Assembly (NCBI GenBank): GCA_017525245.1
Contig: JAFXTE010000035.1
Coordinates: forward strand, 2,497-66,496
Direction: 5' to 3'
DNA: 64,000 nucleotides
From: Bacteroidales bacterium
GTDB lineage: Bacteria; Bacteroidota; Bacteroidia; Bacteroidales; WCHB1-69
Made by a program: the position numbers and the translations under genes. The notes beneath the pieces were generated by a model. The model saw only the letters and a program-made list of their open reading frames with translations, made no database searches and was not told the DNA's origin. The first letter of the stretch is position 1. The number at the start of each line of letters is the position of its first letter. Of this stretch, positions 9,397 through 36,440 are shown in pieces.

Positions 9397-10620
9397 CTAT
9401 TTGACGACCACTTTTTGGATGTGTTTTCTGCCTTCCGAATCGGTTACATGCACAACATACACGCCCGAGGGCAAGTGACCGAGAAAAACGGGTGAAGCAT
9501 TGCTCTCCTCCATGATTCGCCCTTGCATATCACACAGCGTGATATTCGCTATCTTCTCATCTCCTTTCAGCTCAACAATCAGAATGTCAGAAGCAGGATT
9601 AGGGTATATTCTGACATTGTCGGCGATATACTGTGAGACATGACTCGTTGAGTGAATATCCAGATGGTTATACAAAAAATCGCGGGCGATATGGAAACAG
9701 GTGTCAAATTTATCTTCTAAAAGATTGCTGTACATCGAGATATAAAAACTGTGTTCCTCCCCGTCGAATGGGTGAAATTCGTAGTCGTCAATGCCGAGGT
9801 CGGAAAGACGGTTCGTGATTGCGTGCGACCCGTACATATACGGGAAAAAGGGTAACGGCAAATAGGAGTAGCAATAGCCGGAATCAAAAGGCACCACCTG
9901 GTCCTCAGTGCCATGAATCATACAAAGGGGGACATATTCATCAAGGTCTATGACTTCAACATCAAGCACGCCTCCCCATTGTGCCACCGCCCCGGCCACT
10001 TTAGATGAAAGACCGGAGTATTCGTCATATCCGGAGCTGTTCATCGATCCCAGGTCAGGTGAAGCGGATGTTTCCGAGGGCCTTTCCTCGTTTGACAAAA
10101 AGATTTCGTTGAGGATGGCAATGGAACCGGCGGAGTTGCCCAGAAGGAATATGTTGTTCGTGTCGATACGATATTCGAGACAATGTGCTTTGAAAAAGCG
10201 AATGGCGGAATTCACATCCTGCGCGGCCATGTAGGCGCTCCGGATAAGCGAACTCGCACTGATGGACATCAGCGGCAGCAGGCGGTAATCAATGGAGGCC
10301 GCCGCATAACCGTGTTTGGCAAAACGGGTGCAGTACTCCACCATGTCACACCAATCGCGGCTACCAGCCACAAAAGCCCCCCCGAAAACGGTAATCACCA
10401 ACGGACGGGCAGAAAGAGTGTCGCCCGAAGGCTCGTAGAAATCAAGATAAAGAGTGATAGGCGAGGTTTGACCTTCCCTCACGGCACTGCTGAAAGGGAT
10501 TTCAGAGGTCGTCATGGTGTTTTCAAACACAGGATCGGCATAACGGCTGCCCGTTTGAGCAAGCAGCGTGGCGGGACACAGCAGGCAAAACACCGTCCAA
10601 AAGATGGAATGCGATTTCAT
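9397..10620 (-). CDS. Alpha/beta-hydrolase esterase with T9SS C-terminal sorting domain
   Basis: Signal peptide, GxSxG nucleophile elbow (GNSAGS), and C-terminal IYPNPASD...VYVVHV...KVVVK Por-secretion tail. Confidence 0.8.
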   Translation of the reverse strand: MKSHSIFWTVFCLLCPATLLAQTGSRYADPVFENTMTTSEIPFSSAVREGQTSPITLYLDFYEPSGDTLSARPLVITVFGGAFVAGSRDWCDMVEYCTRFAKHGYAAASIDYRLLPLMSISASSLIRSAYMAAQDVNSAIRFFKAHCLEYRIDTNNIFLLGNSAGSIAILNEIFLSNEERPSETSASPDLGSMNSSGYDEYSGLSSKVAGAVAQWGGVLDVEVIDLDEYVPLCMIHGTEDQVVPFDSGYCYSYLPLPFFPYMYGSHAITNRLSDLGIDDYEFHPFDGEEHSFYISMYSNLLEDKFDTCFHIARDFLYNHLDIHSTSHVSQYIADNVRIYPNPASDILIVELKGDEKIANITLCDMQGRIMEESNASPVFLGHLPSGVYVVHVTDSEGRKHIQKVVVK

Positions 10621-10672: not shown

Positions 10673-11754
10673 AATGGAATTGCATCAGGTACGCCTTGAT
10701 GAAGCCGTCGATGTCGCCGTCCATCACCGCGTTGACGTTGCCGACCTCGTACTGCGTGCGCAGGTCCTTCACCAACTTGTAGGGTTGCATCACGTAGCTG
10801 CGGATCTGGCTGCCCCATTCAATGCGCTTCTTGGAACTCTCGATTTCGTTGAGCTTCGCGCGCTTCTTCTCCAACTCGATTTGGTAGAGTTGCGACTTCA
10901 GCATCTGCATGGCCTTCTCGCGGTTCTGCGACTGCGAGCGGGTCACCTGGCACTCGATGATGATGCCGGTGGGGTGGTGGTGCAGGCGCACGGCCGTCTC
11001 CACCTTGTTGACGTTCTGCCCGCCGGGGCCGCTGCTGCGATAGGTGTCCCACGAGATGTCCGCCGGACTGACTTCGATCTCGATGTCGTCGTTGATGATG
11101 GGATAGGCGAAGACGGAGGCGAACGAGGTGTGGCGTCGTGCCGCGGAGTCGAACGGCGAGATGCGCACCAGCCGGTGTACGCCATTCTCGCTCTTGAGGA
11201 AGCCGTAGGCATACGAGCCTTCGATTTCGATGGACGCGGACTTGATGCCGGCCACGTCACCTTCCTGCCGGTCGATGAGTTTCACGGAGAAGTTGTGGCG
11301 CTCGGCCCAGCGCATGTACATACGCAGGAGCATCTCGGCCCAGTCGCAGCTTTCTGTGCCGCCCGCGCCGGAGTTGATGTTCAGGATCGCGTCGAAGGAG
11401 TCCTCCTCGTCGCGCATCATGTTCTTGAACTCCAGCTTCTCCACGGCCTCCATCGTTTTGGCGTAGGCCTCGTCCAGTTCCGCCTCGGTGGCGTCGCCCG
11501 ACTGCTGGAACTCGCTGACTACCAGCAGCTCATCGTTCAGCTCGGCGGCCTTGTAGTAGTCGGCCACCCACGCCTTGATGCCGCTGATCTCCTTCAGCAA
11601 CTTCTCGGCGGCCTTCGGGTCGTCCCAAAAGCCGTCTTGTTGGGTTATTTGTTCTTTGTCTTTAATTTCTTGTTCTTTGGCATCTACGTCAAAGATACCT
11701 CCTTAGCTCACTGAGCCTCGTTTGAACCGCTTTGATTTGGTCGGTGGTTGTCAT
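10671..11754 (-). CDS. prfB: Peptide chain release factor 2, with programmed +1 frameshift (join 11754..11692 and 11690..10671)
   Basis: Frame 0 reads [21 protein letters not shown] followed by TGA. Site AGGAGG TAT CTT TGA C at about 11688-11705. The +1 frame continues DVDAKEQ...[17 protein letters not shown] (RISPFDS) and GGQ (GPGGQNVNK) motifs are present. Confidence 0.92.
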
Positions 11755-14465: not shown

Positions 14466-15338
14466 TCAAATACAAAGACTTACCTTTTCGCCACTTCGCG
14501 TCGGAAGCACCAGCGTGGCATGTTCCTTAATAAGCAGATGCAATTGACTCTCACTTACAATGCTAAGATCAACATCGTTTTGCGACATCAGGTCTGATAT
14601 TGTCGGATTGTCCGCAAGCAGACGCATCCGTTCGGTCATTGGTTGATCAGATAAAATGGGCGATAGGGAAAACAGTTCCAGATTGGAAGCTGTTTCTTCA
14701 ATCAAGTGGTTTTTCACGAAAGATTTTTGCTTTTCGTCTCCTATAAGTTCACCAATACCCTGCATTAGCATTTTCGGACTTGTCTTTCGAACACTTTCAG
14801 CGCATTGCACGGCATAGTCTGCCACACTCTTGCCCGTTCGCAATCGGACAATGTTTGGATTGATTGCCGTGCTTTTCTGAAGGAAAAACCAAACATCGAA
14901 AATGTCTCGTGGGGTGACGCGCTCTCCTAATGCGCATAGTTTATGGGCAAACATGTCTGGAAGTGTCATTACCCGTATATCCGTACCTGCCAAAGTCTTG
15001 ATTTCGTAATGGTTGTCATATTGCCGTGTGGAAACCTCAACTTTCAGCATACGATTACCGCCACCATAGTTGAGAACGAGCAGCGGGCCGTAAAACTTCA
15101 TTGCTTCGTCATCAATCTTCCCAAATTTCGACAGCAGATTATGTAATTTATGAAAGGCATTCTCCGTTTTTGTGCTGTCTAACAAGTTGAAATCCAAATC
15201 TGTGGAGAATCTTGGCAATTGATGAAACAACAAAAGCGAGGTTCCTCCCTTAAAGGCCAGTTGGTTCGACAATTCTTTATCTCGGAAAATGGCAAGTAAA
15301 ACCTGCATCATGAAATAACGGTGTTTTGCAATATCCAT
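14466..15338 (-). CDS. abiEii: Nucleotidyltransferase toxin AbiEii/AbiGii family (DUF1814)
   Basis: N-terminal LAFKGGTSLLLFHQLPRFSTDLDFNLL signature. 290 aa. Immediately downstream of an AbiEi-like gene. Confidence 0.85.
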   Translation of the reverse strand: MDIAKHRYFMMQVLLAIFRDKELSNQLAFKGGTSLLLFHQLPRFSTDLDFNLLDSTKTENAFHKLHNLLSKFGKIDDEAMKFYGPLLVLNYGGGNRMLKVEVSTRQYDNHYEIKTLAGTDIRVMTLPDMFAHKLCALGERVTPRDIFDVWFFLQKSTAINPNIVRLRTGKSVADYAVQCAESVRKTSPKMLMQGIGELIGDEKQKSFVKNHLIEETASNLELFSLSPILSDQPMTERMRLLADNPTISDLMSQNDVDLSIVSESQLHLLIKEHATLVLPTRSGEKVSLCI

Positions 15339-22605: not shown

Positions 22606-22638
22606 CTGGAAGATACCGAAAATCCAGAATTGAGTAGG
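22606..22638 (+). repeat. 33-nt leader motif, copy A (diverged)
   Basis: ctggaagataccgaaaatccagaattgagtagg, 23 nt before the ATG at 22662. Confidence 0.7.
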
Positions 22639-22661
22639 CTAATTACAAACAAACAGAAGAC

Positions 22662-22862
22662 ATGCATCTTTATAGACTGACACCGAGGATAACTGCAATT
22701 TCAAAATTTCCCCAAGGGTTTATTTTGCAAGTCATTTCCCGCCAAAGACTTTCTCCAACACCCGATGAGGTGAAAGAAGCTTTGATACGTGTCGGTTTCA
22801 CTGATCCTGATGCGTTAAGAATGTTGACCAGCTACTACTGGAACATAGAGAAGATATCGTAA
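22662..22862 (+). CDS. Hypothetical small protein (66 aa), cassette A
   Basis: ORF preceded by the leader motif and followed by a hairpin at 22871-22900. Confidence 0.5.
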   Translation: MHLYRLTPRITAISKFPQGFILQVISRQRLSPTPDEVKEALIRVGFTDPDALRMLTSYYWNIEKIS

Positions 22863-22870
22863 TTTGAACA

Positions 22871-22900
22871 AGCCATACATTCTTTTTTGAGTGTATGGCT
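22871..22900 (+). terminator. Hairpin with T-rich tail closing cassette A
   Basis: agccataca-ttcttttttgag-tgtatggct followed by ttgatttt. Confidence 0.5.
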
Positions 22901-22918
22901 TTGATTTTGTAACACATT

Positions 22919-22951
22919 GCGGAGGAAGCCGAAAATCCGGAAAAGAGTAGG
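22919..22951 (+). repeat. 33-nt leader motif, copy B
   Basis: gcggaggaagccgaaaatccggaaaagagtagg, 20 nt before the ATG at 22972. Confidence 0.85.
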
Positions 22952-22971
22952 CAACTTAAAATCGTATTATC

Positions 22972-23211
22972 ATGAGATATAAACTTTTAGTAACAGGAAA
23001 GGGATTGTCTGCATTGCAGTGGATAGAAAAGCCCGACGGGAGCACTGTCAGAAGTTCCAGTGAAGAATGGAGCTTTGTGGTTGAATCGAACGAATCAAAC
23101 GGTATTTCCGCTGATGATTTCTTGAAGCAGACTGGTTGTAAATGGAGAAGCGGCTTCAGCAGGCCTTCTAAAATCACAAATGCCAACGGTTGGACGGTAA
23201 AACAATTATGA
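22972..23211 (+). CDS. Hypothetical small protein (79 aa), cassette B gene 1
   Basis: ORF after leader motif B; no family recognised. Confidence 0.5.
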   Translation: MRYKLLVTGKGLSALQWIEKPDGSTVRSSSEEWSFVVESNESNGISADDFLKQTGCKWRSGFSRPSKITNANGWTVKQL

Positions 23212-23218
23212 GACTTCA

Positions 23219-23578
23219 ATGAGTACAATCCTCGAAAACACTGGGACGTGTGGCAAGTTGAATGTCCAGCTTTTAGAGTTGTTGAAAAAGCATGGCGGGA
23301 TATTTCGCATTGATGAAGACGAGCAGTTCACAACGTGGGCCGTCACGCTCTTCGACAAAGATGGTGGTGTCCCGCTGTCGTTGTCGTTGGTCGGATCAGT
23401 CGCGGAAATCGCGGTGAAGGACATGGGTTGGGGTTACGAGGTGGTGGAAATCACCCGTTGCGAAGACTTTGCCGAAAGAAACGATGACTACGTTTTTATT
23501 TTGGCCGCCGTCGATGGAAACAAAGTGACGATTGACGGGGTCAAGGCGGTAATACAGCAGTTGAAATCTGCAAGATGA
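23219..23578 (+). CDS. Hypothetical protein (119 aa), cassette B gene 2
   Basis: ORF 7 nt after the preceding stop; no family recognised. Confidence 0.5.
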   Translation: MSTILENTGTCGKLNVQLLELLKKHGGIFRIDEDEQFTTWAVTLFDKDGGVPLSLSLVGSVAEIAVKDMGWGYEVVEITRCEDFAERNDDYVFILAAVDGNKVTIDGVKAVIQQLKSAR

Positions 23579-23597
23579 TGGTAAATTCCCAATTATT

Positions 23598-23918
23598 ATG
23601 ACCGCCCTCCTCTGGCTCCTCCAAAAAATCGCGCCCATCACGAATGTCATCGGGCTGTTCGTTCTGTTGTCGGAACTCGCCTACGGCGACATCGGCATCG
23701 GGACGCACGTGTATGTTCTCGCGGGCGGGCTTGCGCTCGCGGGGTTCGTCCTCGGGTTCACGAACTGGGCGTTGGACGTGCCCCCGAAATTCTTCTGGAC
23801 CAAATCGCGGGTGCAACTCTTCGACAACCGCGTGGGCAACGCCTTCGGTTACGCCGTCATCTTCTTCCTGCTGCCGTTCTTCGTGGCGGGGGTGGCGGTT
23901 GTGGTGGGGAAATGGTGA
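23598..23918 (+). CDS. Small integral membrane protein (106 aa, about 3 TM helices)
   Basis: Hydrophobic ORF. Its 3' about 155 nt recur as partial copies at four downstream sites. Confidence 0.6.
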   Translation: MTALLWLLQKIAPITNVIGLFVLLSELAYGDIGIGTHVYVLAGGLALAGFVLGFTNWALDVPPKFFWTKSRVQLFDNRVGNAFGYAVIFFLLPFFVAGVAVVVGKW

Positions 23919-23922
23919 TGGA
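23764..23922 (+). repeat. Gene-3'-end repeat R1 (the intact, in-gene copy)
   Basis: actgggcgttggacgtgcccccgaaattcttctggaccaaatcgcgggtgcaactcttcgacaaccgcgtgggcaacgcc...ggggaaatggtgatgga. Confidence 0.85.
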
Positions 23923-24032
23923 CCGTTAGTGCCACCATTCTGAAAGCCCCCTGACTATAAAAAACAATAGGGTAAACGCCTTAAATCTCGCTTTATTTTC
24001 GAGATTTGAGGCGTTTACTTCTGATATTTTAT

Positions 24033-24040
24033 TATTTTTG
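24033..24040 (+). promoter_or_regulatory. -7 promoter box TATTTTTG
   Basis: TAnnTTTG match 20 nt upstream of the ATG at 24060. Confidence 0.5.
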
Positions 24041-24059
24041 CAGTCCAAATTATTCATGT

Positions 24060-25508
24060 ATGACAAAGGCAAATATAATCGGAAGAGAAAGAGAATTAGC
24101 TGAATTACAACGTAGTATGGATTCAGACAGGTCTGAATTTGTCATCGTATATGGTCGGCGGCGCGTCGGCAAGACTTTTTTGGTGGACAATTTCTTCCAT
24201 TATCAATACGATTTTTCGTACGTAGGTGGGCATCGACTTACAAAAAACAAGCAGCTACGCAATTTCGCCAAAGCATTGAAAAAGTACGCCAACATGTCCA
24301 AGCAACCCAAATTCGCTGATTGGGACGATGCCTTTGACGCACTGGAGTCTTTTCTTGACACATTGCCGTCAGAAAAACGGAAAGTGGTTTTCTTTGACGA
24401 GATGCCGTGGATTGACACCCCGCATTCGGAATTTGTAGATGCCTTGGAGATGTTTTGGAACGGTTGGGCCTCGCGGCGGAACGATATCGTTTTCGTTGCC
24501 AGCGGATCGTCAACCTCTTGGATGGTGGACAAGCTTGTTGACAATCAAGGTGGATTGCATGGTCGTATCACAAACAACATCTATGTGCGTCCCTTTACGC
24601 TGCACGAAGTGGAGTTGTACTTGCAGAGTCGCGGAGCTGCGTGGGACCGCTATCAGATATTGCAGGCGTACATGACCATCGGGGGGATACCTTTCTATTA
24701 CAGCCTGCTGAATGGGAAAGAGAGCCTCGTTCAAAATATTGACAGACTGTTTTTCCGGAAAAATGGTGAGCTACAAACCGAATTTGAAGAGCTATACACC
24801 GCATTGTTCAGCAATTCCGAGAAATACACTGCCGTTGTGAAACTGCTGAATGGCAAACGAGAAGGGATGACCCGTGAAGAGATCATGTCGGCGACCAAAA
24901 TGGATAGCACCATGCTGACCAAAGTGCTTCGGAATCTCGAACGTTGTGACTTCGTTATCCGATACTCGCAGTTCGGCAACAAAAAAAAGGGGAGCATCTT
25001 TCGGCTGGTGGATTTCTACACTCTTTTTTACTACCGTTTTCTGGAAAAATTCAACTCTCAAGATGAACAGTGGTGGAGTCACAATTTCCAATCCCACGCA
25101 GTTGAATCCTGGCAAGGACTGGCATTTGAACTCCTGTGTCTCATGCACTTGAACCAGATTAAGGCAAAGTTAGGCATTTCGGGTATAGCCACCGAGGCCT
25201 CTTCGTGGAGGTATGTGCCAGGCAAGGGCAAGGCTGCGGAAAATGTGGAGAAAGGTGCACAAATAGACCTGCTGATTGACAGAGCGGACCGCACTATCAA
25301 TCTTTGTGAGATGAAATTCTCGACCACCCCGTTCCGAATCAGCGATGCTTACGAGCAATCGCTACGAGCCCGGATGGAGGTCTTCCGCACCCAAGTCAAA
25401 ACCACAAAATCACTTGTAAATACGTTTGTGACTACGTTCGGTGTTGCCGACGGTGTACACCGAAGCATTGTCCATAGCGAGGTTACTATGGACGACCTGT
25501 TCGCGTAA
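24060..25508 (+). CDS. ATP-binding protein (archaeal-ATPase/DUF234-type AAA)
   Basis: Start trimmed to MTKANIIGRERELAEL. Walker A GRRRVGKT and Walker B VVFFDEMPW. 482 aa. Confidence 0.8.
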   Translation: MTKANIIGRERELAELQRSMDSDRSEFVIVYGRRRVGKTFLVDNFFHYQYDFSYVGGHRLTKNKQLRNFAKALKKYANMSKQPKFADWDDAFDALESFLDTLPSEKRKVVFFDEMPWIDTPHSEFVDALEMFWNGWASRRNDIVFVASGSSTSWMVDKLVDNQGGLHGRITNNIYVRPFTLHEVELYLQSRGAAWDRYQILQAYMTIGGIPFYYSLLNGKESLVQNIDRLFFRKNGELQTEFEELYTALFSNSEKYTAVVKLLNGKREGMTREEIMSATKMDSTMLTKVLRNLERCDFVIRYSQFGNKKKGSIFRLVDFYTLFYYRFLEKFNSQDEQWWSHNFQSHAVESWQGLAFELLCLMHLNQIKAKLGISGIATEASSWRYVPGKGKAAENVEKGAQIDLLIDRADRTINLCEMKFSTTPFRISDAYEQSLRARMEVFRTQVKTTKSLVNTFVTTFGVADGVHRSIVHSEVTMDDLFA

Positions 25509-25509
25509 G

Positions 25510-25539
25510 GCAACTCTTCGACAACCGCGTGGGAAACGC
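25510..25539 (+). repeat. Gene-3'-end repeat R2 (30-nt fragment)
   Basis: gcaactcttcgacaaccgcgtgggaaacgc starts 1 nt after the ATPase stop codon. Confidence 0.75.
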
Positions 25540-25641
25540 ACCACAGAATCCGCGCTGTTATAGAGATGCAAAAATTCACGTTTCTACAGGTAGGGAAACA
25601 ATTTAGTATTCACTTTTTTTGTGCTCCAATCAAAAAAATCC

Positions 25642-25649
25642 TACTTTTG
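25642..25649 (+). promoter_or_regulatory. -7 promoter box TACTTTTG
   Basis: TAnnTTTG match about 40 nt upstream of leader motif copy C. This places the motif inside the 5' UTR. Confidence 0.5.
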
Positions 25650-25689
25650 CACTTTCAAAAGGAATGAGAAATTCTACAACAATACAGTT

Positions 25690-25722
25690 ACGGAGGAAAC
25701 CGAAAATCCGGAATAGAGTAGG
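25690..25722 (+). repeat. 33-nt leader motif, copy C
   Basis: acggaggaaaccgaaaatccggaatagagtagg, 25 nt before the ATG at 25748. Confidence 0.85.
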
Positions 25723-25747
25723 TAAACACAATTAACACCTTACAATT

Positions 25748-26515
25748 ATGCCAAATTTAAGTCGACTTGACAAAAATGCATTATCAAATATCATAAGAGG
25801 ATTTGCGAATAAAATCTTCCAAAGTGAAGCCCAATTCCAATTTGATTTGGCTTGGGAACTACAACAGCAAAGTTGGGGAAATGCCAAACTTGAGGATATG
25901 AGGATGATGGTTAACAAAAGTAATGGAATGATAGGTAAGTGCTATACAGATATTGTGCTGGAACAAGAGGACTATAGTGTTGCTATTGAATTAAAATATA
26001 AGACAGCAGAGTATCATCCAAAGGGAGGTAGTTATCCCATTTTATTCGGTCATGATGCCGTAGATGAGGGCCGCTACGACTATCTATGGGATGTCCATCG
26101 AATTGAATTGCTTACAGGAAAAGGCAACAAGACAGAGATGAATGGCGTAGTGAAAGTGCTAAAAGGATGCAACAAAGGATTTGCTGTGCTTTTGACAAAC
26201 GAGAAACAATATTGGGATAAAAAGTACATAATACCGGGAAAAGCTTCTCAATCTATTGATAATCAGTTTCGCATAGGGTGCATCAAAGGGAAGTGTGGAA
26301 ATTTGTTCGGTAAAGATTTGGATTGGAAACGCGATGCCGTTAAATATCCTAATAACTATAATAATTATCCCGCAACTGTTTTGACAAAAACAAATAAACC
26401 AAAATTTCGTGCACAGCCAATTCATTTAGACCAAGCCTATAAATATAAGTGGGAGGATTATCATAATACACAACAACCGAACGGCGATTTTAAATTCGTA
26501 ATTATAGAAGTGTAG
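25748..26515 (+). CDS. PD-(D/E)xK-like protein, paralogue P2
   Basis: YTDIVLEQEDYSVAIELKYK (D..ExK), GRYDYLWDVHRIELL and GFAVLLTNE blocks, matched block-for-block in the 28214 protein. Confidence 0.65.
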   Translation: MPNLSRLDKNALSNIIRGFANKIFQSEAQFQFDLAWELQQQSWGNAKLEDMRMMVNKSNGMIGKCYTDIVLEQEDYSVAIELKYKTAEYHPKGGSYPILFGHDAVDEGRYDYLWDVHRIELLTGKGNKTEMNGVVKVLKGCNKGFAVLLTNEKQYWDKKYIIPGKASQSIDNQFRIGCIKGKCGNLFGKDLDWKRDAVKYPNNYNNYPATVLTKTNKPKFRAQPIHLDQAYKYKWEDYHNTQQPNGDFKFVIIEV

Positions 26516-26537
26516 CATAGAAAATTATCAAACAAAT

Positions 26538-26700
26538 CATGTCCAACACCCTTTCCAAATCCCGCTACACCGCATTCTACCAGAATGAAAGAAATGCCAC
26601 CCGATGAATATAAGAGAGCCCGGGAATCCCTGCTGAAATTCTGCGACTGGACACTTGGGTGATGGTGAAGATTTGGGAGAAGTTGGTGGTGATGAGTTAG
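26538..26700 (+). pseudogene. Remnant of a DUF2779-like gene (N-terminal about 15 codons fused to frameshifted C-terminal about 30 codons)
   Basis: MSNTLSKSRYTAFYQ... then a stop. Other frames read ...LLKFCDWTLG and MVKIWEKLV, resembling the N- and C-termini I recall for DUF2779 proteins. Confidence 0.4.
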
Positions 26701-26726
26701 AAAGTAACGAATAGCAACAATTTATA

Positions 26727-26759
26727 ACGGAGAAAACCGAAAATCCGGAAAAGAGTAGG
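26727..26759 (+). repeat. 33-nt leader motif, copy D
   Basis: acggagaaaaccgaaaatccggaaaagagtagg, 23 nt before the ATG at 26783. Confidence 0.85.
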
Positions 26760-26782
26760 TTAAATGGTTTAATTTCAAGGAT

Positions 26783-27703
26783 ATGGTAATAAAGAATGTA
26801 GATGTCAGTGATGATTTGGTTAAAAAGGTGGAAAAATGTATTGATTTTATTAAGGGAACCATAGAAAGTGGGACTTCAGGAAAGAGTGGGACATCAGGAT
26901 TCCATTATCCTAATCCCATAATTAAAGTGAATTCCAAAATAACACCTGATATACCTTATTTGCTTCTGCATAGAGATGTGCAGGTTAATGTGAGTTTTCA
27001 AAATGTTTCATGGTTTATCCATTCAGTGCCTATCTATCTGAAAAATAAAATAGAATCCAAAGAATTAGGACTCTATGTCACGGGGGAATATGATGTCAAG
27101 TATATTCTACTTGATGTGGAAAAAATCGATAAAGAAGTATCATCTGACCATGAACGGTTCAAAATGTTACTAACAACGGTGCTCATACATGAACTGATGC
27201 ATGCTGTTTTGGATCTGTCCAACCATAAAGATTATTATAATAATTCCAGTACGAAGAACCAGTCTAGTTCCTGCCCTTTTGCTCTTGTACATAAACACAT
27301 GGACCGCCTGGAACTTAATAAGGATTATAAAGACTGGCGTGAGGAAGCGTATGCCAATGCCCTGACACTACATCTTATTGAAATGTCTGGCAAAAAGAAA
27401 TTAATCGAATATGCGAGAAATTTTATGATTAATCAAGATGAACAATATGCAGTGGGAGCAAGTTTGTCAAAAATCTCATGTATTTATGAACAAACTGATG
27501 ATTATCTTAAAGAAAAAAATCTAAAGGAGAATAATCTGACCAAGGTCTATGATATCGATAAATGGAATAAATTGCGGAGAGACTGGGTGAGTTGTGTCAA
27601 GCATATAAAGAACAATATAGAAAACAAAGTAGATCTAATGTCTCAGCTAGAACAATTGGAAAATCAAATTCGAGCATTTGTTAGATCTCAACATAAAAGA
27701 TAG
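26783..27703 (+). CDS. Zincin-like protein (HExxH plus downstream Glu)
   Basis: LIHELMHAVLD, with EEAYANAL about 55 residues later. C-terminal coiled-coil-like tail. No specific family recognised. Confidence 0.6.
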   Translation: MVIKNVDVSDDLVKKVEKCIDFIKGTIESGTSGKSGTSGFHYPNPIIKVNSKITPDIPYLLLHRDVQVNVSFQNVSWFIHSVPIYLKNKIESKELGLYVTGEYDVKYILLDVEKIDKEVSSDHERFKMLLTTVLIHELMHAVLDLSNHKDYYNNSSTKNQSSSCPFALVHKHMDRLELNKDYKDWREEAYANALTLHLIEMSGKKKLIEYARNFMINQDEQYAVGASLSKISCIYEQTDDYLKEKNLKENNLTKVYDIDKWNKLRRDWVSCVKHIKNNIENKVDLMSQLEQLENQIRAFVRSQHKR

Positions 27704-27792
27704 GTCTCATTACATTTGCTCATAATGAGATACGCGCTTCCAGCACGAGATCGTGGGAAAAACTATATTGCCGTTAAACGAAAGGGTATCTA

Positions 27793-27825
27793 ATGGTCTA
27801 AGCCGAAAATCAACATAAAAGTAGG
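27793..27825 (+). repeat. 33-nt leader motif, copy E (degenerate, no ORF behind it)
   Basis: atggtctaagccgaaaatcaacataaaagtagg, followed by a hairpin at 27850-27883 instead of a gene. Confidence 0.6.
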
Positions 27826-27849
27826 TGTATAATACATACAAGATAGCGA

Positions 27850-27883
27850 ACAAGGTTCTGCCAACAAATTGGCGGAACCTTGT
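27850..27883 (+). terminator. Hairpin acaaggttctgcc-N8-ggcggaaccttgt
   Basis: 13-nt arms (12 Watson-Crick pairs with one central mismatch), then tgctttc. Confidence 0.4.
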
Positions 27884-28213
27884 TGCTTTCAGTGTGTTAC
27901 AAGTGAAAAGATATCAACGTGATTTGCAAATTAAATGTATACGAATTAAGTTTCCGATGCGCTGTTGATAAATTGTTGATAACTTTTTTGTTTTTTTACA
28001 TTAAATTTTCCGCACACCACGAATATAAGAATAGATACCCATTAAATATAAAACAACCACTTTTATCGGGTACGCGTTCTTTGACATATTGATTGAGAAT
28101 AATATCGGGTAATGGTGTTGTGAACATTCCTCATTGCGCCGCAAGGGCACATAACCAATCACAATTCACAAATTTAAAAAATTATCTTAATTTTCATCAA
28201 AAACTTTAAAATC

Positions 28214-28948
28214 ATGCAAAAAACAGCTTTTACAAATCAAGTCTTAAACGACATTCATGAATTTCTGAACCAGAACACCAAAGTGTTCGCCAACGAACGC
28301 GATTTACAGATAAATCTGGCGGCTTATCTGAAATGCATCAGACAATATGATATCGAAGTGGAGTGCCACGTGTCGTCAGATATCCTGTCAAGTCTTGTCC
28401 CGCAACTCCCGTCGGAGCGATGCACTTATTACCCCTGGCTCCAAACCAACAGTGACAAACCACAGGAGATGTACGTGGATATTGTGGTGAGCAATGGAGA
28501 GGAATATGTGCCAATCGAACTAAAGTATAAAAAGAAGGAACTGAAAGGTGATGTGGTATTGTTCGGGCAGAACATGGGCGCAGGCGTCATCCTGAAGGGT
28601 GATGGTGCGCACGACTTCGGACGGTATGGTTTTTGGAGAGATGTGCGCAGAGTGGAGCTTCTCGTCAAGTCGTTCGTGAATGTCAAAAACGGCATCGTCC
28701 TTTTTGTTACCAATGACGAATCTTATAAGACGGCTTCCGTGGCGGGCACCAACAGCGAGCATTTCGCCATGGGCGACGGCACCGAAACGTATCACAAGGG
28801 CACGAACTGCTGCTGGCCGTTCAACCCGCTAGATACGGAGTCATACAAATCCTGCCCTTGCTTCAAGCTGGAGGACGAACACGATGTGAATTGGAACAAA
28901 CACACCTTCAGCGGGGTTGACTTCCATATCGCGGAGGTGATCGTGTAG
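28214..28948 (+). CDS. PD-(D/E)xK-like protein, paralogue P3
   Basis: YVDIVVSNGEEYVPIELKYK, GRYGFWRDVRRVELL and GIVLFVTNDESY blocks. Clear paralogue of 25748..26515. Confidence 0.65.
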   Translation: MQKTAFTNQVLNDIHEFLNQNTKVFANERDLQINLAAYLKCIRQYDIEVECHVSSDILSSLVPQLPSERCTYYPWLQTNSDKPQEMYVDIVVSNGEEYVPIELKYKKKELKGDVVLFGQNMGAGVILKGDGAHDFGRYGFWRDVRRVELLVKSFVNVKNGIVLFVTNDESYKTASVAGTNSEHFAMGDGTETYHKGTNCCWPFNPLDTESYKSCPCFKLEDEHDVNWNKHTFSGVDFHIAEVIV

Positions 28949-28965
28949 TAGTTTTTTCAACTGTA

Positions 28966-28998
28966 ACGGAGGAAGCCGAAAATCCGGAAAAGAGTAAG
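28966..28998 (+). repeat. 33-nt leader motif, copy F
   Basis: acggaggaagccgaaaatccggaaaagagtaag, 21 nt before the ATG at 29020. Confidence 0.85.
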
Positions 28999-29019
28999 TG
29001 GGAAAAAAACTTATTGAAA

Positions 29020-29331
29020 ATGCATATTGTTAAAATCAATCAAGGACGAGCTGATCTGTGCGATAGTAAGTTTGGCAGCTTCATTCGCACACTGGCCTCT
29101 AGAGGCGTAATTGATGCTGACATAAATGATGACGGAATCGTACTCATCACATTCGATGACGGTAGTGTAAGAATAATGAGGGAGGACAAATCTTTTATCC
29201 GAACAATACGCTCTATGAGCAATAGTCAAGCTGTGTCTGCAAGATGGAGTGGCGATGATATTGCCCTGCGTCTGGCAAATGGAAGAACGGAATTGCGAAG
29301 AGTGGGAGGAGGGTTTATCCGTAGATTCTAA
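29020..29331 (+). CDS. Hypothetical small protein (103 aa), cassette F gene 1
   Basis: The track ORF starts at TTG 29014; the first ATG is at 29020 (MHIVKINQG...). Confidence 0.5.
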   Translation: MHIVKINQGRADLCDSKFGSFIRTLASRGVIDADINDDGIVLITFDDGSVRIMREDKSFIRTIRSMSNSQAVSARWSGDDIALRLANGRTELRRVGGGFIRRF

Positions 29332-29400
29332 TCGACTTTAAATCCATTTACTCACCAGATAATAAATTCAAATAACAAATTCATTATATCACACAAAATT

Positions 29401-29724
29401 ATGGCACTCGTACATAAATATGTTCATTCTCAGGAACAGACAGAACCACAACAGTCTAAAGAAAAAACATTACCATCAGGGACAACGCAAATCGAAATCT
29501 TCTCCCATATGACAATAGCGTCAAGTTTTCTACGGGAATGGGTGAAAAATCCTAAAACAATTTATGATCTTGAACAAGAAGTCAATGATTTTCTTGTAGA
29601 AAACGAAGGCAAGATTGCCGTTAAGGATATTAAATACACCACCCAGTGTATGACAAATAAGCAGAATGAAACTAATCCTGATACAATACTTTGGACTGTA
29701 ATGATTATTTACGAAACGAAGTGA
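29401..29724 (+). CDS. Hypothetical small protein (107 aa), cassette F gene 2
   Basis: ORF; no family recognised. Confidence 0.5.
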   Translation: MALVHKYVHSQEQTEPQQSKEKTLPSGTTQIEIFSHMTIASSFLREWVKNPKTIYDLEQEVNDFLVENEGKIAVKDIKYTTQCMTNKQNETNPDTILWTVMIIYETK

Positions 29725-29726
29725 AT

Positions 29727-29756
29727 TGTAGAGACGCGCCAACGGTGCGTCTCTAC
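29727..29756. repeat. REP-like hairpin GTAGAGACG..CGTCTCTAC
   Basis: tgtagagacgcgccaacggtgcgtctctaca abuts repeat R3. Confidence 0.75.
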
Positions 29757-29840
29757 ACGCCGTCATCTTCTTCCTGCTGCCGTTCTTCGTGGCGGGGGTG
29801 GCGGTTGTGGTGGGGAAATGGTGATGGAACCCCTGACGGA
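29757..29840 (+). repeat. Gene-3'-end repeat R3 (distal half)
   Basis: acgccgtcatcttcttcctgctgccgttcttcgtggcgggggtggcggttgtggtggggaaatggtgatgga is identical to R1 over this stretch. It then continues acccctgacgg as in R4. Confidence 0.85.
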
Positions 29841-29978
29841 GGTTCAACGGGTGCGACGGAAAGCGCCCGCCATCATACCCGTAAGGGATACATATCCGCG
29901 GCAACGATTCCAGCGAATGAACCCGCCTTTACCCCCATTAGGGGTTGTATGTTTGATGAAATTTCGGAAATCGCCTAC

Positions 29979-31103
29979 TTACTTCTCAAAGAGGGCATCC
30001 GCGGTGATTATGTCTTGAAATTCAACAGAATAAGAATTCTGCTTTACTTCATTGGCCGAAATGAGGATGAGATGGATGGACTTGTCTGTCCCCGTCGCGA
30101 TTCTGAAACTGTTCCGACGGTTTTGGACTTTCTGTTCTTCCTCGGATGTCATCTCGTAGGGCTGCTTGGTGTATTTCATCTCACAAATGTCTATAATACC
30201 GTCATTGCGGTCGATGAGCAGATCAATTTGCGCACCTTTTCTTTCGAAAGTGGCGGGTTGATACCACGAGCAGACCCTGCTTATGGTGCCGAAGATACTG
30301 AGGGCTTTCTTGATTTGAGTGACGTGCAGAAGACAAACACGCTCAAAAGCGAGCCCGCACCAGTTGTAGTATAAGGGCGAACCTGTCTGACGAGACCAAA
30401 AGCACTCATCGCCGCCGCTGTTCTGCTGGATAAACCGATAATAGAACAACGTGTAAGAGTCTATCAGTTGGAAAACGGCAAATTTGGATTTAAGACCAAG
30501 GTTGTTGTATTTGCGAATAAAACCGCAGGCTTCGAGGTCTTGCAACATCTCCGAAAGACGCCCGTTATCCTGGAGATGAGCTTCCGATATGAGCTCTTCT
30601 CGGGTCATCCCGATTCGTTTATGGCCAAGCGTCTGTACAATGGTAATATAAGGGTCGGGGTTTTTGAAGAGTGACGCATACAACTCGTCAAATTCATCAT
30701 ACAGGCCGCCGTCGGGATTGAAGAAAAGGTTGTCGATGTTTTGAGAGAGGCTCAGACCGCGTTCTAATTTCGACCAGTAGAACGGAATACCACCCATAAC
30801 CATATAGCACTCCATAAGCTGCCTGCGATTCATGCCAAGTTTGCGGTGGATAGCATACTGCTCGCATTCGTGGAGGGTGAACGGCTGAAGATGAATCTTG
30901 GTGTTGACGCGGTTGTGGAGGCCTCCTTTGTTTTTGAGGATTTTCTTGATAATCCAAGATGTGGCACTGCCGCAAACGATAAGGACAACGTCCTTACGTG
31001 CCGATGCCCAACCATTCCAAAAGTTTTCGAGAGCGGGGACGAATCCGGAACGCTGAGTGTCCAGCCATGGAAGCTCATCTATAAATCCATTTCTCTTCCT
31101 ATG
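29979..31103 (-). pseudogene. 5'-truncated DUF234-type ATPase (paralogue of 24060..25508, lacking the Walker A region)
   Basis: Homology to the intact copy starts at KRNGFIDELPWLDT (compare KRKVVFFDEMPWIDT). About 115 N-terminal residues are missing. The upstream part of track ORF 29979..31382 reads through unrelated repeat sequence, and the nearest ATG is out of frame. Confidence 0.65.
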
Positions 31104-31151
31104 AACATACCGGATAAATTTTACTGAGCGCAAAAGTAGGAAAAATATTCT

Positions 31152-31198
31152 TATACTCAGCGGAAAGTGTTGAATTTTTATAGATTCCGCTGAGTATA
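31152..31198. repeat. Perfect 14-bp inverted repeat TATACTCAGCGGAA / TTCCGCTGAGTATA (19-nt spacer)
   Basis: Arms at 31152-31165 and 31185-31198, upstream of the truncated ATPase. Confidence 0.8.
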
Positions 31199-31245
31199 GG
31201 TGTTTTTTTCTTGATGGTTTTGATTTGTAACAGCTCGTAGGAGGC

Positions 31246-31445
31246 ATCCTCGGCTTCACCCACTGGGCGTTGGGCGTTCCCCCGAAACTCTTCTGGACCA
31301 AATCGCGGGTGCAACTCTTCGACAACCGCGTGGGTGACGCCCTATAGGAGACGCGCCATGGCACGTCTCTACACGCCGTCATCCTCTTCCTGCTGCCGTT
31401 CTTCGTGGCGGGGGTGGCATACGTGGTGGGGAAATGGTGATGGAA
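31246..31445 (+). repeat. Gene-3'-end repeat R4 (longest extra copy, interrupted by a REP hairpin at 31343-31372)
   Basis: atcctcggcttcacccactgggcgttgggcgttcccccgaaactcttctggaccaaatcgcgggtgcaactcttcgacaaccgcgtgggtgacgccc [REP] acgccgtcatcctcttcctgctgccgttcttcgtggcgggggtggcatacgtggtggggaaatggtgatgga. Confidence 0.85.
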
Positions 31446-31571
31446 CCCCTGACGGGGTTCTGCGGAACATCGTGGGGGACCGCACCTACAGACATGGAAC
31501 CCCTAACGGGGTTCATGGGAATGACGGAACGAACCTCGTTATCTCCGTAAGGAAATGCATATCCGTAGAAG

Positions 31572-31973
31572 CTATTTCATCGCAATATATTGCCGTATCT
31601 TTTCGACAAGCTGACGTGCCGGTTCTATTCGGGAAACAACGTCATCCTCAGACACATCGTAAGAGCAGTTGTAATCGGCACTTTCTCTCATTGATTGTAA
31701 TTGGGAATAGAAACGACCTTCTTCTACCGTAAACAATTGTGTCTTGACATAATATTGCTGAAATCTAATAGCAGCCCCTTTGTGTGTCCCTACTTCATGC
31801 CCGTCGCTGATTAACAATGCGCTTACCGCATGAAAAAGCGCATAATAAAGACGATTGGCCATGGTGCTCCAAAAGCCTGCCTGTCTCAAAATTTCCTGCT
31901 CCGCAAGAATGCTTTCAGCTTTTTCAAGTTCCAAATTGACGACAATCCGTCTGTCCTCGTCACTAAGATTCAT
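31572..31973 (-). CDS. hepT: HEPN-domain protein (toxin half of a HEPN-MNT pair)
   Basis: Track ORF trimmed to the ATG at 31973 (MNLSDEDRRIVV...). ANRLYYALFHAVSALL and MRESADY blocks. Overlaps the MNT gene by 11 nt. Confidence 0.7.
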   Translation of the reverse strand: MNLSDEDRRIVVNLELEKAESILAEQEILRQAGFWSTMANRLYYALFHAVSALLISDGHEVGTHKGAAIRFQQYYVKTQLFTVEEGRFYSQLQSMRESADYNCSYDVSEDDVVSRIEPARQLVEKIRQYIAMK

Positions 31974-32286
31974 ATAGTAATTGCTTGTCTTGTTCAACGT
32001 TATAGAAAAAAAGGGCATGAGGGCCGCCATACCACTCATCCTTCGTATAGGTGTGTACACTGAAGTACTGCCAAAGGTCAAATCCGCGTTCCATGATAGG
32101 GTATGCGTATTTGTCGAAATCATCAGCACCTTTCTTGGGTTTGTCAAGCAGTAGCAACAAGTCCCAATCGCTGTCTTGACGATGGTCTCCGCGCGCACGT
32201 GAGCCGTAAAGATACAGAGCACTTCCTTTGGGCAGCACATCTTTCGCCACCTGTTTGATACTTTCCAAAATGTTTGTTTCAGTCAT
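31963..32286 (-). CDS. mntA: Minimal nucleotidyltransferase (MNT antitoxin half)
   Basis: LYLYGSRARGDHRQDSDWDLLLL (GS..D.D NTase motif). Start trimmed to the ATG at 32286. Confidence 0.8.
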   Translation of the reverse strand: MTETNILESIKQVAKDVLPKGSALYLYGSRARGDHRQDSDWDLLLLLDKPKKGADDFDKYAYPIMERGFDLWQYFSVHTYTKDEWYGGPHALFFYNVEQDKQLLYES

Positions 32287-32437
32287 TTCGAAATTCTTTT
32301 CACGCTGCAAAAATACAATAAAATCCAATACTACATCACCGCAATAAAATCCATAACTCCCGAATCAAGCTCCCATAGCGTCCAAATCGTGACTTACTGA
32401 GCGTGCAGGATGCATACATTCCGTCTCTTCTGTGACC

Positions 32438-32525
32438 GTTCCCCCGAAACTCTTCCGGCCCCAATAGCGCGTGCAACTCTTCGACAACCGCGTGGGGAAC
32501 GCCCTCGGCTACGCCATCATCGCGA
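32438..32525 (+). repeat. Gene-3'-end repeat R5 (most diverged copy, adjacent to the tcdA promoter)
   Basis: gttcccccgaaactcttccggccccaatagcgcgtgcaactcttcgacaaccgcgtggggaacgccctcggctacgccatcatcgcg. Confidence 0.75.
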
Positions 32526-33440: not shown

Positions 33441-33450
33441 TGATTTTATG

Positions 33451-33534
33451 GTAGGGGCGTATCGAATACGCCCTACATTAGGGACATTTCAAATACGCCC
33501 TATATTAGGAACGTATCGAACACGCCCTACATTA
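33451..33534 (+). repeat. Three tandem units around ATACGCCCTA(C/T)ATTA; the first forms a hairpin
   Basis: gtaggggcgtatcgaatacgccctacattagg / gacatttcaaatacgccctatattagg / aacgtatcgaacacgccctacatta. Confidence 0.7.
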
Positions 33535-35045: not shown

Positions 35046-35112
35046 CCTCTTACGTCGTCTCACGTCTCACGTCTCAAGTCTTACGTCTTACGTCTTACGT
35101 CACACGTCTCAC
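35046..35112 (-). repeat. Heptanucleotide tract (GTGAGAC/GTAAGAC units on the minus strand)
   Basis: tcttacgtcgtctcacgtctcacgtctcaagtcttacgtcttacgtcttacgtcacacgtctcac overlaps the last bases of the ABC permease gene. Confidence 0.75.
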
Positions 35113-36440
35113 TTCTCCCGCAGCCACCTGAAAATCGTGCCCCATGACGGCTTCTTCCCGTAGGTCATGATGCCGATGCGATAGACTTTGGCCGCGAACC
35201 AGATGCAGAACACGAGGAAGGCGAGCGCAAGTCCCATCGAGAGAATCAACTCCCAGGCCTGGACGCCGGAGGGAAGCCGCACCATCATGGCGATGGGGGA
35301 GGTGAGCGGAATCATGGAGAGCCAGAACGCTAATGCGCCGTCGGGATTCGTGGAGATGGTCGGCACGAACACGATGGCCAGTATCAACGGGATGGTGATG
35401 GGCATCGTATATTGCTGAGAATCCGATTCGTTATCCACAACGGAGCCGGTGGCAGCGTAGAGGGTTGAGTAGATGAGGTAGCCCACCACGAAGAAGAAAA
35501 TGAATGCGAAGATAATGGTTCCGAACGAGACTGAGAAGTAGTTCTGGATCATCTCGAAGATGTTGTCCGGCGCGATATCTATCGTTGCCGTGTTGGGCAC
35601 GTTGACTCCCGGGGTTTCCGCCATTGTCTCCACGGTGTCGGGGCTGAACAGGTTGGGGGCGGCTACCTGCACGCCGAGCAGGATGCCGACGGAAAGGACA
35701 ACCCATATCGCCAATTGCGTAAGCCCCACCAACGCGATACCCACGATCTTGCCGACTAACAGTTGCGTGGGCTTCACCGAGGAGATCAGCACCTCCACGA
35801 TGCGGTTCGATTTCTCCTCCAACACGCCGCGCAGCACCTGGCTGGCGAACATGATGATGATGAAGTAGATGATAATGCCGCACATCATGCCGAAAATCTG
35901 GTTGACTTCGGCATCATGCTCCTTTTCGCCCCCGTTGTCGTCAATCTGGATGGTGACAGATTCCGCTTTGGCCAAGTTCTGCAGGTTTTCGAAACGGGCC
36001 ATCTCAATGTGCAGCGAATCTCGCAACAATTGGTTGAAGAAGATGTCATCCATCTGGCTTTCTATGTCAGATTGCAGCCCTGACGGCAGGTTCTTTTTAT
36101 AGTAGATGTTGGATTTCAGGGATTGTGTGTTCGCTAAAATTTGCAGAACCACGTCGTAATCCTGGTCGAAGGCCTCTTTCTTGATCTGTTCGATGTCGCC
36201 GGAACGGTAACTGAATGAGTAGTGTTTGTCGTCAGTGAAGTTGTTGATGAAAATCTCGCTTTCATCGACCACGAGGACTTTGGAGAACTTTTTGCTCTCG
36301 CTGAGCTGAACCAGCAGCACGGGCAGCACAATCATAGCCGCCAGCAGCACCGGCATCAGGATGGTGATGATGATGAAGGATTTTTTCTGGATGCGTGTCA
36401 GGTATTCACGCGAAATGATCAGGAGTGTTTTATTCTTCAT
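35109..36440 (-). CDS. ABC-2 type transporter permease (NatB-like)
   Basis: 443 aa, N-terminal TM, large loop, then a C-terminal cluster of about 5 TM helices. Overlaps the upstream ATPase gene by 11 nt. Confidence 0.8.
   Translation of the reverse strand: MKNKTLLIISREYLTRIQKKSFIIITILMPVLLAAMIVLPVLLVQLSESKKFSKVLVVDESEIFINNFTDDKHYSFSYRSGDIEQIKKEAFDQDYDVVLQILANTQSLKSNIYYKKNLPSGLQSDIESQMDDIFFNQLLRDSLHIEMARFENLQNLAKAESVTIQIDDNGGEKEHDAEVNQIFGMMCGIIIYFIIIMFASQVLRGVLEEKSNRIVEVLISSVKPTQLLVGKIVGIALVGLTQLAIWVVLSVGILLGVQVAAPNLFSPDTVETMAETPGVNVPNTATIDIAPDNIFEMIQNYFSVSFGTIIFAFIFFFVVGYLIYSTLYAATGSVVDNESDSQQYTMPITIPLILAIVFVPTISTNPDGALAFWLSMIPLTSPIAMMVRLPSGVQAWELILSMGLALAFLVFCIWFAAKVYRIGIMTYGKKPSWGTIFRWLREK

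Follow-up and report, generated by a model that had tools for sequence, protein, structure and literature searches.

Two kinds of described gene array resemble the locus reported here, a row of small genes at 22606-29845 of a 64-kb stretch of DNA from an uncultured rumen Bacteroidales (the window, to whose full length all coordinates refer), in which a repeat of about 33 nt occurs six times, five of them just ahead of a start codon. The first is the integron. As in integrons, each cassette of the window comes with one conserved element, the open reading frames (ORFs) lie on one strand, are unrelated and mostly lack a promoter, and the cassettes differ between strains. In contrast, the attC sites of integrons are imperfect palindromes of 57-141 nt with R and L boxes, which lie at the 3' end of the cassette and are cut by IntI, whereas the window element measures 35 nt, folds as a pseudoknot whose stem has 4 bp, lies 5' of the ORF at a fixed distance from its ATG, and is mostly found as a single copy. 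An integron or attC site was thus rejected, since no IntI-type recombinase was found among 50 of the window's larger ORFs or by tblastn of the window with XerD, the attC architecture is lacking, and the element is locked to the next ATG.

The second is the rAID-1 array (recombinase-associated acquired interbacterial defence) of Bacteroidales, which comes from the same phylogenetic neighbourhood and likewise consists of rows of short, co-oriented, horizontally shuffled genes with a conserved intergenic motif. Its genes are low in guanine plus cytosine (GC), which in the window applies to part of the array. The window differs in three respects. No XerD-like recombinase was found in it; its cassettes match none of the Imm and SUKH genes (Imm-SUKH, Imm-ANK, ImmNN) that fill rAID-1 arrays; and its array is broken by an ATPase gene and by genes that lack the motif.

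The repeat itself belongs to a known RNA family. An Rfam scan of the window returned a single family, RF02914, DUF805b RNA, of type Cis-reg, so the copies described here add further members to a family already on record and are not a new element. RF02914, which shares clan CL00115 with DUF805, stems from a comparative screen (PMC5737381) in whose main text the DUF805b motif is not discussed, and literature searches by DUF805b name, accession and motif sequence found no functional study. RF02913, considered as the DUF805 entry, was rejected because it is pemK.

DUF805b leaders and their distance to the start codon

The 33-mer is present at 22919, 25690, 26727 and 28966, with one or two mismatches each and always on the plus strand, while shuffled sequences gave no matches. 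A relaxed core, CCGAAAATCNNNANNNNAGTAGG, added 22616 (copy A) and 27803 (copy E), for six matches where 0.02 were expected. A position-weight scan of both strands of the whole 64 kb returned exactly these six copies and none elsewhere, with scores for copies A to F of 36.7, 48.8, 46.8, 42.1, 23.2 and 42.0 against a best of 16.3 in shuffled windows. The six same-strand copies reported in the initial annotation are thereby borne out. Five copies had also been said to end 20-25 nt before an ATG, and this is what we found: the gaps from the end of the 33-mer are 23, 20, 25, 23 and 21 nt, to ATGs at 22662, 22972, 25748, 26783 and 29020. The sixth, copy E, had been described as empty, and it is indeed degenerate, with nothing behind it but a strong hairpin (27845-27887; -34 kcal/mol, z -5.9). 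Similarity between copies is limited to some 37-49 nt and stops at the motif edges. The proteins behind the copies had been called unrelated to each other, which holds for most of them and fails for one pair, the 255-aa and 244-aa ORFs (34% identity over 97 aa). Four of the copies directly follow an upstream ORF.

Copies B, C, F and D exceed the Rfam gathering score of 35.6 bits (49.2, 48.8, 44.4 and 43.3 bits) and copy A falls just under it. The window copies carry the hallmarks of DUF805b, namely a 4-bp stem, a 12-nt loop with CCGAAAA and the tail AAnAGAGUAGG, and five of the six lie upstream of an ATG-started ORF on the same strand, in keeping with the Cis-reg type. They share with the family its sequence and hairpin AAGGcGGAAgCCGAAAAgCCUuAAaAGAGUAGGcA, its position upstream of hypothetical genes and its Bacteroidota hosts. 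Four features come from the present analysis: the pseudoknot pair, a spacing of 23 nt, occurrence in phages and a role at cassette junctions. That the pseudoknot goes beyond the Rfam entry is judged from the printed Rfam structure line, which gives the hairpin only.

A search with the pattern CCGAAAANCCNNAANAGAGTAGG of a collection of species-representative genomes yielded at least 120 loci. The phylum-wide counts below rest on the matches listed by this search, among which 121 distinct genome copies were used for counts of anatomy. The genome matches listed include Pedobacter, Chryseobacterium, Flavobacterium, Chitinophaga, Saprospiraceae, Prevotellaceae and Muribaculaceae; outside Bacteroidota they comprise a few Gammaproteobacteria and Chloroherpeton. 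The pattern also matched 95 loci in viral contigs, and a plasmid search gave chance matches and one Hymenobacter copy. When genome loci were scanned with a covariance model made from these copies, 82 of 99 (~83%) held a single copy and 17 held at least two within 8 kb; the window has the highest copy number among the loci scanned in this way. Single copies sit mostly in long intergenic regions, with the nearest upstream ORF at a median of 214-311 nt, and 14 of 108 copies lie less than 50 nt after a same-strand ORF, as in the window array.

The motif folds on the sense strand as an H-type pseudoknot of about 35 nt, in which a 4-bp hairpin bears the loop GGAAnCCGAAAA and the NCC of this loop pairs with the GGN' that closes the conserved tail AAnAGAGUAGGN. 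At the inner stem position, 110 of 120 sequences have a standard pair, and six pair types occur. The base on the 5' side of CCGAAAA and that on the 3' side of AGTAGG form the pseudoknot pair, which is standard in 105 of 120, with five pair types (G-C 38, U-A 27, A-U 19, C-G 15, G-U 6), and both of its positions lie outside the search pattern. Its covariation score of 0.380 compares with 0.094 for shuffles and was reached by none of 500 shuffles, while slid controls stayed at or below 0.08. The CC/GG pairs and the loops GAAAA and AAnAGAGUA are invariant. It is this combination of a covarying pair with invariant CC/GG pairs that defines the H-type pseudoknot. At the two informative pairs, G-U or U-G is seen 18 times and A-C or C-A three times, and from this excess we place the fold on the sense strand. 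A compensatory change can be seen inside the window as well, where the pair is G-C in copy B and A-U in copies C and D.

Two sequence features singled out in the initial annotation did not stand up. GGAGGAA, presented there as unusual for the phylum, is not conserved in the family, whose consensus at this point is GGcGGAAg; it is not a Shine-Dalgarno element, and lies at least 45 nt from the ATG and within the stem and loop. The short AAC..TAAC stretch said to precede several copies amounts to weak A-richness. In a comparison made without computation, the motif showed no complementarity to the 16S 3' tail and no resemblance to a tRNA T-loop or to signal recognition particle RNA, and these ideas were dropped.

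From AGTAGG to the first ORF-opening ATG, both the mode and the median are 23 nt, and the distance is 20-26 nt in 76 of 113 copies. The 60 nt upstream of the motif contain a strict TAnnTTTG box, which we take to be the promoter consensus of Bacteroidetes, in 15 of 119 copies against four in the control, at a variable distance of 6-43 nt. In the window such a box stands at 25642-25649, so the placement of copy C about 40 nt downstream of one was correct. From these two distances we conclude that it is the start codon, rather than the promoter, to which the motif is locked. A search elsewhere for this fixed distance had been proposed, and the motif is position-locked to start codons both here and in other genomes, ahead of diverse genes. 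The results also support the earlier proposal that the motif is probably transcribed as a 5' untranslated region.

The spacer between motif and ATG is poor in G (2-6%) and has A in 71-75% of copies at positions -12 and -13 and in 61% at -3. In Flavobacterium johnsoniae, ribosome profiling and reporters showed that adenines at these positions favour initiation (PMC6847099). By its composition, then, the spacer resembles efficient Bacteroidetes initiation regions.

The genes downstream have little in common. Their 115 proteins fall into 49 Pfam families, none of them dominant, and most of the proteins have no match; the commonest families are TM2, proteins sorted by the type IX secretion system, outer-membrane beta-barrels, rhodopsins and DUF805. 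Forty-five of the 115 are at most 100 aa long, and about 12 resemble double-glycine-leader peptides. An N-terminal hydrophobic segment was found in 35 of the 54 downstream proteins of at least 150 aa, compared with 213 of 585 control ORFs (p = 6e-5). As predicted from their sequences, the downstream genes are enriched for small peptides and exported proteins.

Cassette exchange at the leader

The features of the array are given below, followed by the comparison with related strains. The strain comparison used metagenome contigs from other samples (L-numbered; related rumen strains) that carry the same island. A sigma-70 promoter scan is inapplicable to this phylum and the terminator count was at chance, so that only the hairpin at 22870 was taken from the scan.

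22606-22640, plus strand: copy A, DUF805b leader; Rfam 31.7 bits, E 1.9e-5, under the gathering score of 35.6; 37.8 bits, E 3e-10 with covariance model R1; pseudoknot pair is an A/C mismatch; starts 19 nt past the stop codon of a DUF4230 gene
22662-22862, plus strand: 66-aa ORF, cassette of copy A; no family match; a paralogue, 48% identical, lies behind copy B in other strains
22870-22901, plus strand: terminator-like hairpin and then a T run, between the 66-aa ORF and copy B
22919-22953, plus strand: copy B, DUF805b leader; Rfam 49.2 bits
22972-23211, plus strand: 79-aa ORF, swappable cassette; L149 and L154 carry the 65-aa and 184-aa ORFs instead; nine relatives, on metagenome or metagenome-assembled genome (MAG) contigs only, with no isolate genome or recombinase reached
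23219-23918, plus strand: 119-aa ORF and 106-aa ORF; GC above that of the cassettes; the 106-aa protein is hydrophobic and is read as membrane-bound
24057-25508, plus strand: AAA ATPase, no leader; PADLOC PDC-S27, E 2e-197; Pfam ATPase_2, AAA_16, AAA_14
25510-25539, plus strand: 30-nt core repeat GCAACTCTTCGACAACCGCGTGGGnAACGC; further copies at 23813, 31311 and 32473
25642-25649, plus strand: putative Bacteroidetes-type -7 box TACTTTTG, 40 nt upstream of copy C, read from the sequence
25690-25724, plus strand: copy C, DUF805b leader; Rfam 48.8 bits; pseudoknot pair A-U
25748-26515, plus strand: 255-aa ORF with a D...ELKYK motif, from which it is read as resembling PD-(D/E)xK nucleases; paralogue of the 244-aa ORF; no match in Pfam and PDB sequence searches
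26727-26761, plus strand: copy D, DUF805b leader; Rfam 43.3 bits; pseudoknot pair A-U
26783-27703, plus strand: 306-aa ORF with a HELMH (zincin-like) motif; no family match, and no match in a PDB sequence search
27793-27827, plus strand: copy E, degenerate orphan leader, no ORF behind; position-weight score 23.2; no Rfam match at E<=1; an identical copy in L132 gives 13.9 bits, E 0.02 with model R1
28214-28948, plus strand: 244-aa ORF, no leader, about 330 nt of non-coding sequence ahead; paralogue of the 255-aa ORF
28966-29000, plus strand: copy F, DUF805b leader; Rfam 44.4 bits; AGTAAG in place of AGTAGG, which weakens the pseudoknot
29020-29724, plus strand: 103-aa and 107-aa ORFs, two-gene cassette of copy F; the 107-aa family lies directly behind a leader in L142, L146, L147 and L148; a 107-aa homologue search gave five relatives, all metagenome or MAG, with no isolate genome or recombinase reached; the 107-aa ORF is also followed by a hairpin
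29728-29845, plus strand: palindrome GTAGAGACGCGCCAACGGTGCGTCTCTAC, then a 3'-end fragment of the 106-aa gene; right end of the block of copies C to F

The genes of the array are co-directional, and the GC content of the cassettes is 0.33-0.40 against about 0.5-0.6 in the flanks. The low values cover 22.6-23.0, 25.4-28.2 and 29.0-29.8 kb; in the stretches between (23.0-25.4 and 28.2-29.0 kb) GC reaches 0.44-0.55. In rAID-1 arrays, at least two co-directional downstream genes have a GC of no more than 41%.

At copy B, the flank and the leader are about 87-100% identical across strains up to 3 nt past AGTAGG, and the sequences of L129, L130, L149, L154 and L156 diverge from the window at this point. 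Behind it stands either the 79-aa ORF or an 820-nt segment with the 65-aa and 184-aa ORFs, after which homology returns exactly at the ATG of the 119-aa ORF. Copy C and its promoter precede the 255-aa gene in the window, but in L146 and L147 this promoter and leader precede a gene of the 107-aa family. For copy F, the leader and the gene upstream of it are shared, and the cassette behind them takes three forms, one in the window, one in L141 and L155, and one in L151. In related strains, copy A combines two leader types that meet within CCGAAAA(T/A)CC, which makes it a mosaic. The crossover point is thus not fixed: it falls within the motif in copy A and on the 3' edge of the motif in copies B and F. 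Furthermore, copies B, C, D and F agree at 78% of the 16 columns that are free to vary in the phylum, compared with a mean of 44% between genomes, where only 0.8% of pairs are as similar.

Based on these comparisons, the leader is a real seam of cassette exchange. Strain alignments had been suggested as a check on the initial annotation; they revealed cassette-level variation, with breakpoints that match the position of the motif for copies B, C and F and fall inside it for copy A. Its integron-like reading is upheld in that cassettes vary at the motif, and is not upheld as to a recombination site or membership of the integrons or of rAID-1. Given the unfixed crossover and a junction that lacks the motif (see below), homology-driven exchange and selection for intact gene boundaries fit better than a site-specific reaction. 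The junctions themselves fall at the leader, and from them we infer this mechanism of recombination.

Variation in the island also occurs on a larger scale, in kb-scale modules that some related strains have and others lack. Fragments of the 3' part of the 106-aa gene recur as the 30-nt core at 23813-23842, 25510-25539, 31311-31340 and 32473-32502, and also at 23851-23922, 29757-29845 and 31373-31460. Modules are joined at these fragments: L144 joins 25539 to 32473, L154 joins 23922 to 31245, and L132 contains an extra module that carries a seventh leader. The fragments look like a repeatedly used att-type target, for which no integrase was found, and the 30-nt core had no match in viral contigs. 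The palindrome at 29728-29756 has a relative at about 31335-31372 that splits another fragment of the 106-aa gene, and the two could derive from a small mobile element, as its end or as a scar.

A proposed portable initiation module and its alternatives

Small 5' pseudoknots that act on translation are known from T4 gene 32 mRNA and from E. coli rpsO (S15), where each serves the autoregulation of a single gene through a known protein partner. DUF805b resembles these in placing a small pseudoknot ahead of an unstructured, A/U-rich initiation region, and differs from them in being common to hundreds of unrelated genes across a phylum.

We propose that DUF805b is a portable mRNA leader that would set or gate initiation of the ORF behind it, with exchange occurring passively at the shared leader, and we assign this proposal a probability of roughly 0.55. 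We infer the control of initiation from the presence of a conserved pseudoknot at a fixed distance. In this model, the pseudoknot would occupy the 5' margin of the 30S footprint and be read by the ribosome or by an RNA-binding factor, so that each leader in the window would supply a promoter-less small gene with its own initiation module. These genes belong to a low-GC, strain-variable island. The same ~33 nt before many genes would then offer a passive homology patch for swapping the genes downstream, and no dedicated integrase would be required.

Several observations weigh against this proposal. The predicted fold energy of the motif is no better than that of shuffled sequence (z +1.0 to -1.5); a fold this weak on its own implies a partner, which the motif probably needs. 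The spacing rule is not universal, as in 53 phage loci the next ATG-started ORF (at least 30 aa) is 105-120 nt away. In Rheinheimera and Lysobacter the motif is retained although the spacer contains a Shine-Dalgarno-like sequence, and therefore the motif is no mere substitute for such a sequence. Homologues of the 79-aa protein (~61% identical) occur in L255-L260, for example at L255 1464-1753, without a DUF805b leader, and thus the leader is dispensable for at least this cassette family. The right-hand junction of the only fully mapped swap, at copy B, lacks the motif. Lastly, the kb-scale modules are bounded by a different repeat, the 3' fragments of the 106-aa gene, and the leader therefore does not explain all of the variation.

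A role in RNA processing or stability is the first alternative. Here the pseudoknot would protect the 5' end of a cistron or mark a cleavage site, giving separately stable mRNAs with initiation unaffected. The sense-strand structure, the four array copies that directly follow an upstream ORF, and the hairpins before copy B and after copy E and the 107-aa ORF, which might protect 3' ends, would all suit such a role. A pure 5'-end protector, in contrast, has no need of a tight lock to the start codon rather than to the promoter or transcript start; moreover, the fold is weak, and most genome copies are intergenic and precede single genes, only the 14 of 108 noted above lying within 50 nt of a same-strand ORF. 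We consider this role quite unlikely.

Distinctly improbable, in our view, is a very small aptamer that senses a general cellular signal. The preQ1-I aptamer, of about 34 nt, has a hairpin loop that pairs with an A-rich 3' tail; the tail overlaps the ribosome-binding site or a terminator, and the genes controlled belong to one pathway. DUF805b matches it in size class and topology, and its invariant loops GAAAA and AAnAGAGUA and marginal stability would be in line with a ligand-stabilised 35-nt H-type pseudoknot. Tandem aptamers are known among riboswitches, and a second, shorter DUF805b copy follows the first in three loci (L028, L093 and L109). The difference from preQ1-I lies in the lack of an expression platform and of a coherent gene set: the 23-nt spacer is unstructured and A-rich, with no terminator or occlusion of the start site, and the 49 Pfam families downstream, alongside a majority of proteins without a match, share no pathway.

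We give equally little credence to a site for a dedicated recombinase encoded elsewhere, attC-like or rAID-like, with the resemblance to an RNA leader being secondary. Cassette breakpoints do coincide with the motif, the array copies are unusually uniform, and rAID-1 arrays have been described with conserved intergenic motifs and an unknown mode of assembly. Against such a site, the crossover points are unfixed and the right junction of the mapped swap has no site, 82 of 99 sampled genome loci are single-copy, and a DNA site needs neither a lock to the ATG nor a sense-strand pseudoknot. Searches for the enzyme were negative. The initial annotation saw no recombinase in the window, in agreement with our scan of 50 of its larger ORFs, which found no Pfam recombinase domain (Phage_integrase), and with tblastn using XerD, which gave no match in the window or in the array-bearing loci. 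Extending the search beyond the window, as had been advised, revealed no tyrosine recombinase in the flanks of related arrays out to about 10 kb. Similarly, the suggestion that the cassettes might be polymorphic-toxin immunity genes was not borne out, as the ten ORFs of the array have no match to an immunity family, whether of polymorphic toxins or of type VI secretion, in Pfam or NCBIfam.

A DNA-level promoter for an alternative sigma factor is very unlikely: a promoter with a short leader might account for the constant distance of 20-25 nt to the ATG, yet several copies lie downstream of a canonical -7 box, and compensatory changes in two helices, the pseudoknot included, with a G-U bias are not produced by a protein-binding DNA site. 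A simple local duplication or functionless MITE-like repeat, to which the clustering of copies on one strand might point, is refuted by the covarying motif found phylum-wide and by similarity that ends at the motif edges, which excludes the long duplicated flanks considered earlier.

Bacteroidota ribosomes work without Shine-Dalgarno pairing, and few positive initiation signals are known for them beyond single adenines near the start codon. A pseudoknot that occurs throughout the phylum, is borrowed by phages and stands 23 nt from the ATG is a candidate initiation signal, or a candidate site of action for a global post-transcriptional regulator. With its array, its pseudoknot and its spacing rule, this orphan motif becomes approachable by experiment, and the covarying pairs and fixed spacing offer direct mutational tests. 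A shared leader that acts as an exchange seam would likewise be a testable, integrase-free alternative for the assembly of 'integron-like' arrays in gut Bacteroidales. More speculatively, and unlikely in our estimation, DUF805b may correspond to the intergenic motif conserved in cassette arrays of Bacteroidales, those of rAID type included, serving both as an RNA initiation module recognised by the ribosome or a factor and as a DNA homology patch for integrase-free capture and shuffling of unrelated genes. A possible use is as a portable expression part for engineering Bacteroides.

Copies in phages and Gammaproteobacteria and the genomic neighbourhood

Many of the viral copies belong to one conserved gut-phage locus, seen in L160, L161, L165, L166, L171, L209, L215 and 46 more IMG/VR loci on contigs of about 55-110 kb. 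A DUF805b copy of up to 55.7 bits is followed there by two conserved hairpins, and the locus may encode a longer non-coding RNA or an extended leader. The phage record that matches it carries no annotation.

The shorter tandem copies (e.g. GCGCCTTTACCGAAAAGCGAAACGAGTAGG) lie directly 3' of the first copy, at about 316-345 in L028, at about 1359-1390 in L093, and next to the copy at 4565-4604 (minus strand) in L109. They were not reported as separate Rfam matches. The gammaproteobacterial copies in L097, L118, L063 and L038 (Rheinheimera, Lysobacter, Dyella and Glaciecola) keep the usual distance, and those of Rheinheimera and Lysobacter both precede DUF2589 genes.

The window is chromosomal, with ribBA, TonB-dependent receptor and sulfatase genes among others. 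Besides the PDC-S27 defence-candidate ATPase, the region contains an inverted paralogue of it at 29979-31133 (minus strand), 44% identical and missing the first ~106 residues; a HEPN and nucleotidyltransferase (MNT) pair at 31572-32328 (minus strand); and, further upstream, an AbiEii-type toxin gene at 14466-15338 (minus strand). The window also contains AAA_14 ATPases (one, at 7252-8535, with DUF4143) and a Ser/Thr kinase that carries leucine-rich repeats of BspA type; the related small-gene arrays of L254, L255 and L258 have AAA_14/DUF4143 and kinase genes next to them too.

The L254 array has a different conserved intergenic element, a repeat of about 125 nt after each cassette (10266-10390, 11143-11270), composed of the palindrome GCGGCGGATTTGCAAATCCGCCGC and then CATCTTTGCAG, which resembles a promoter box. 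Finally, the window has further repeats at 33447-33534 and 35056-35123: three 34-nt palindromic units, spaced 27 nt apart, between ThiF-family and SNF-transporter genes and, beyond them, a run of CGTCTCA/CGTCTTA heptamers.

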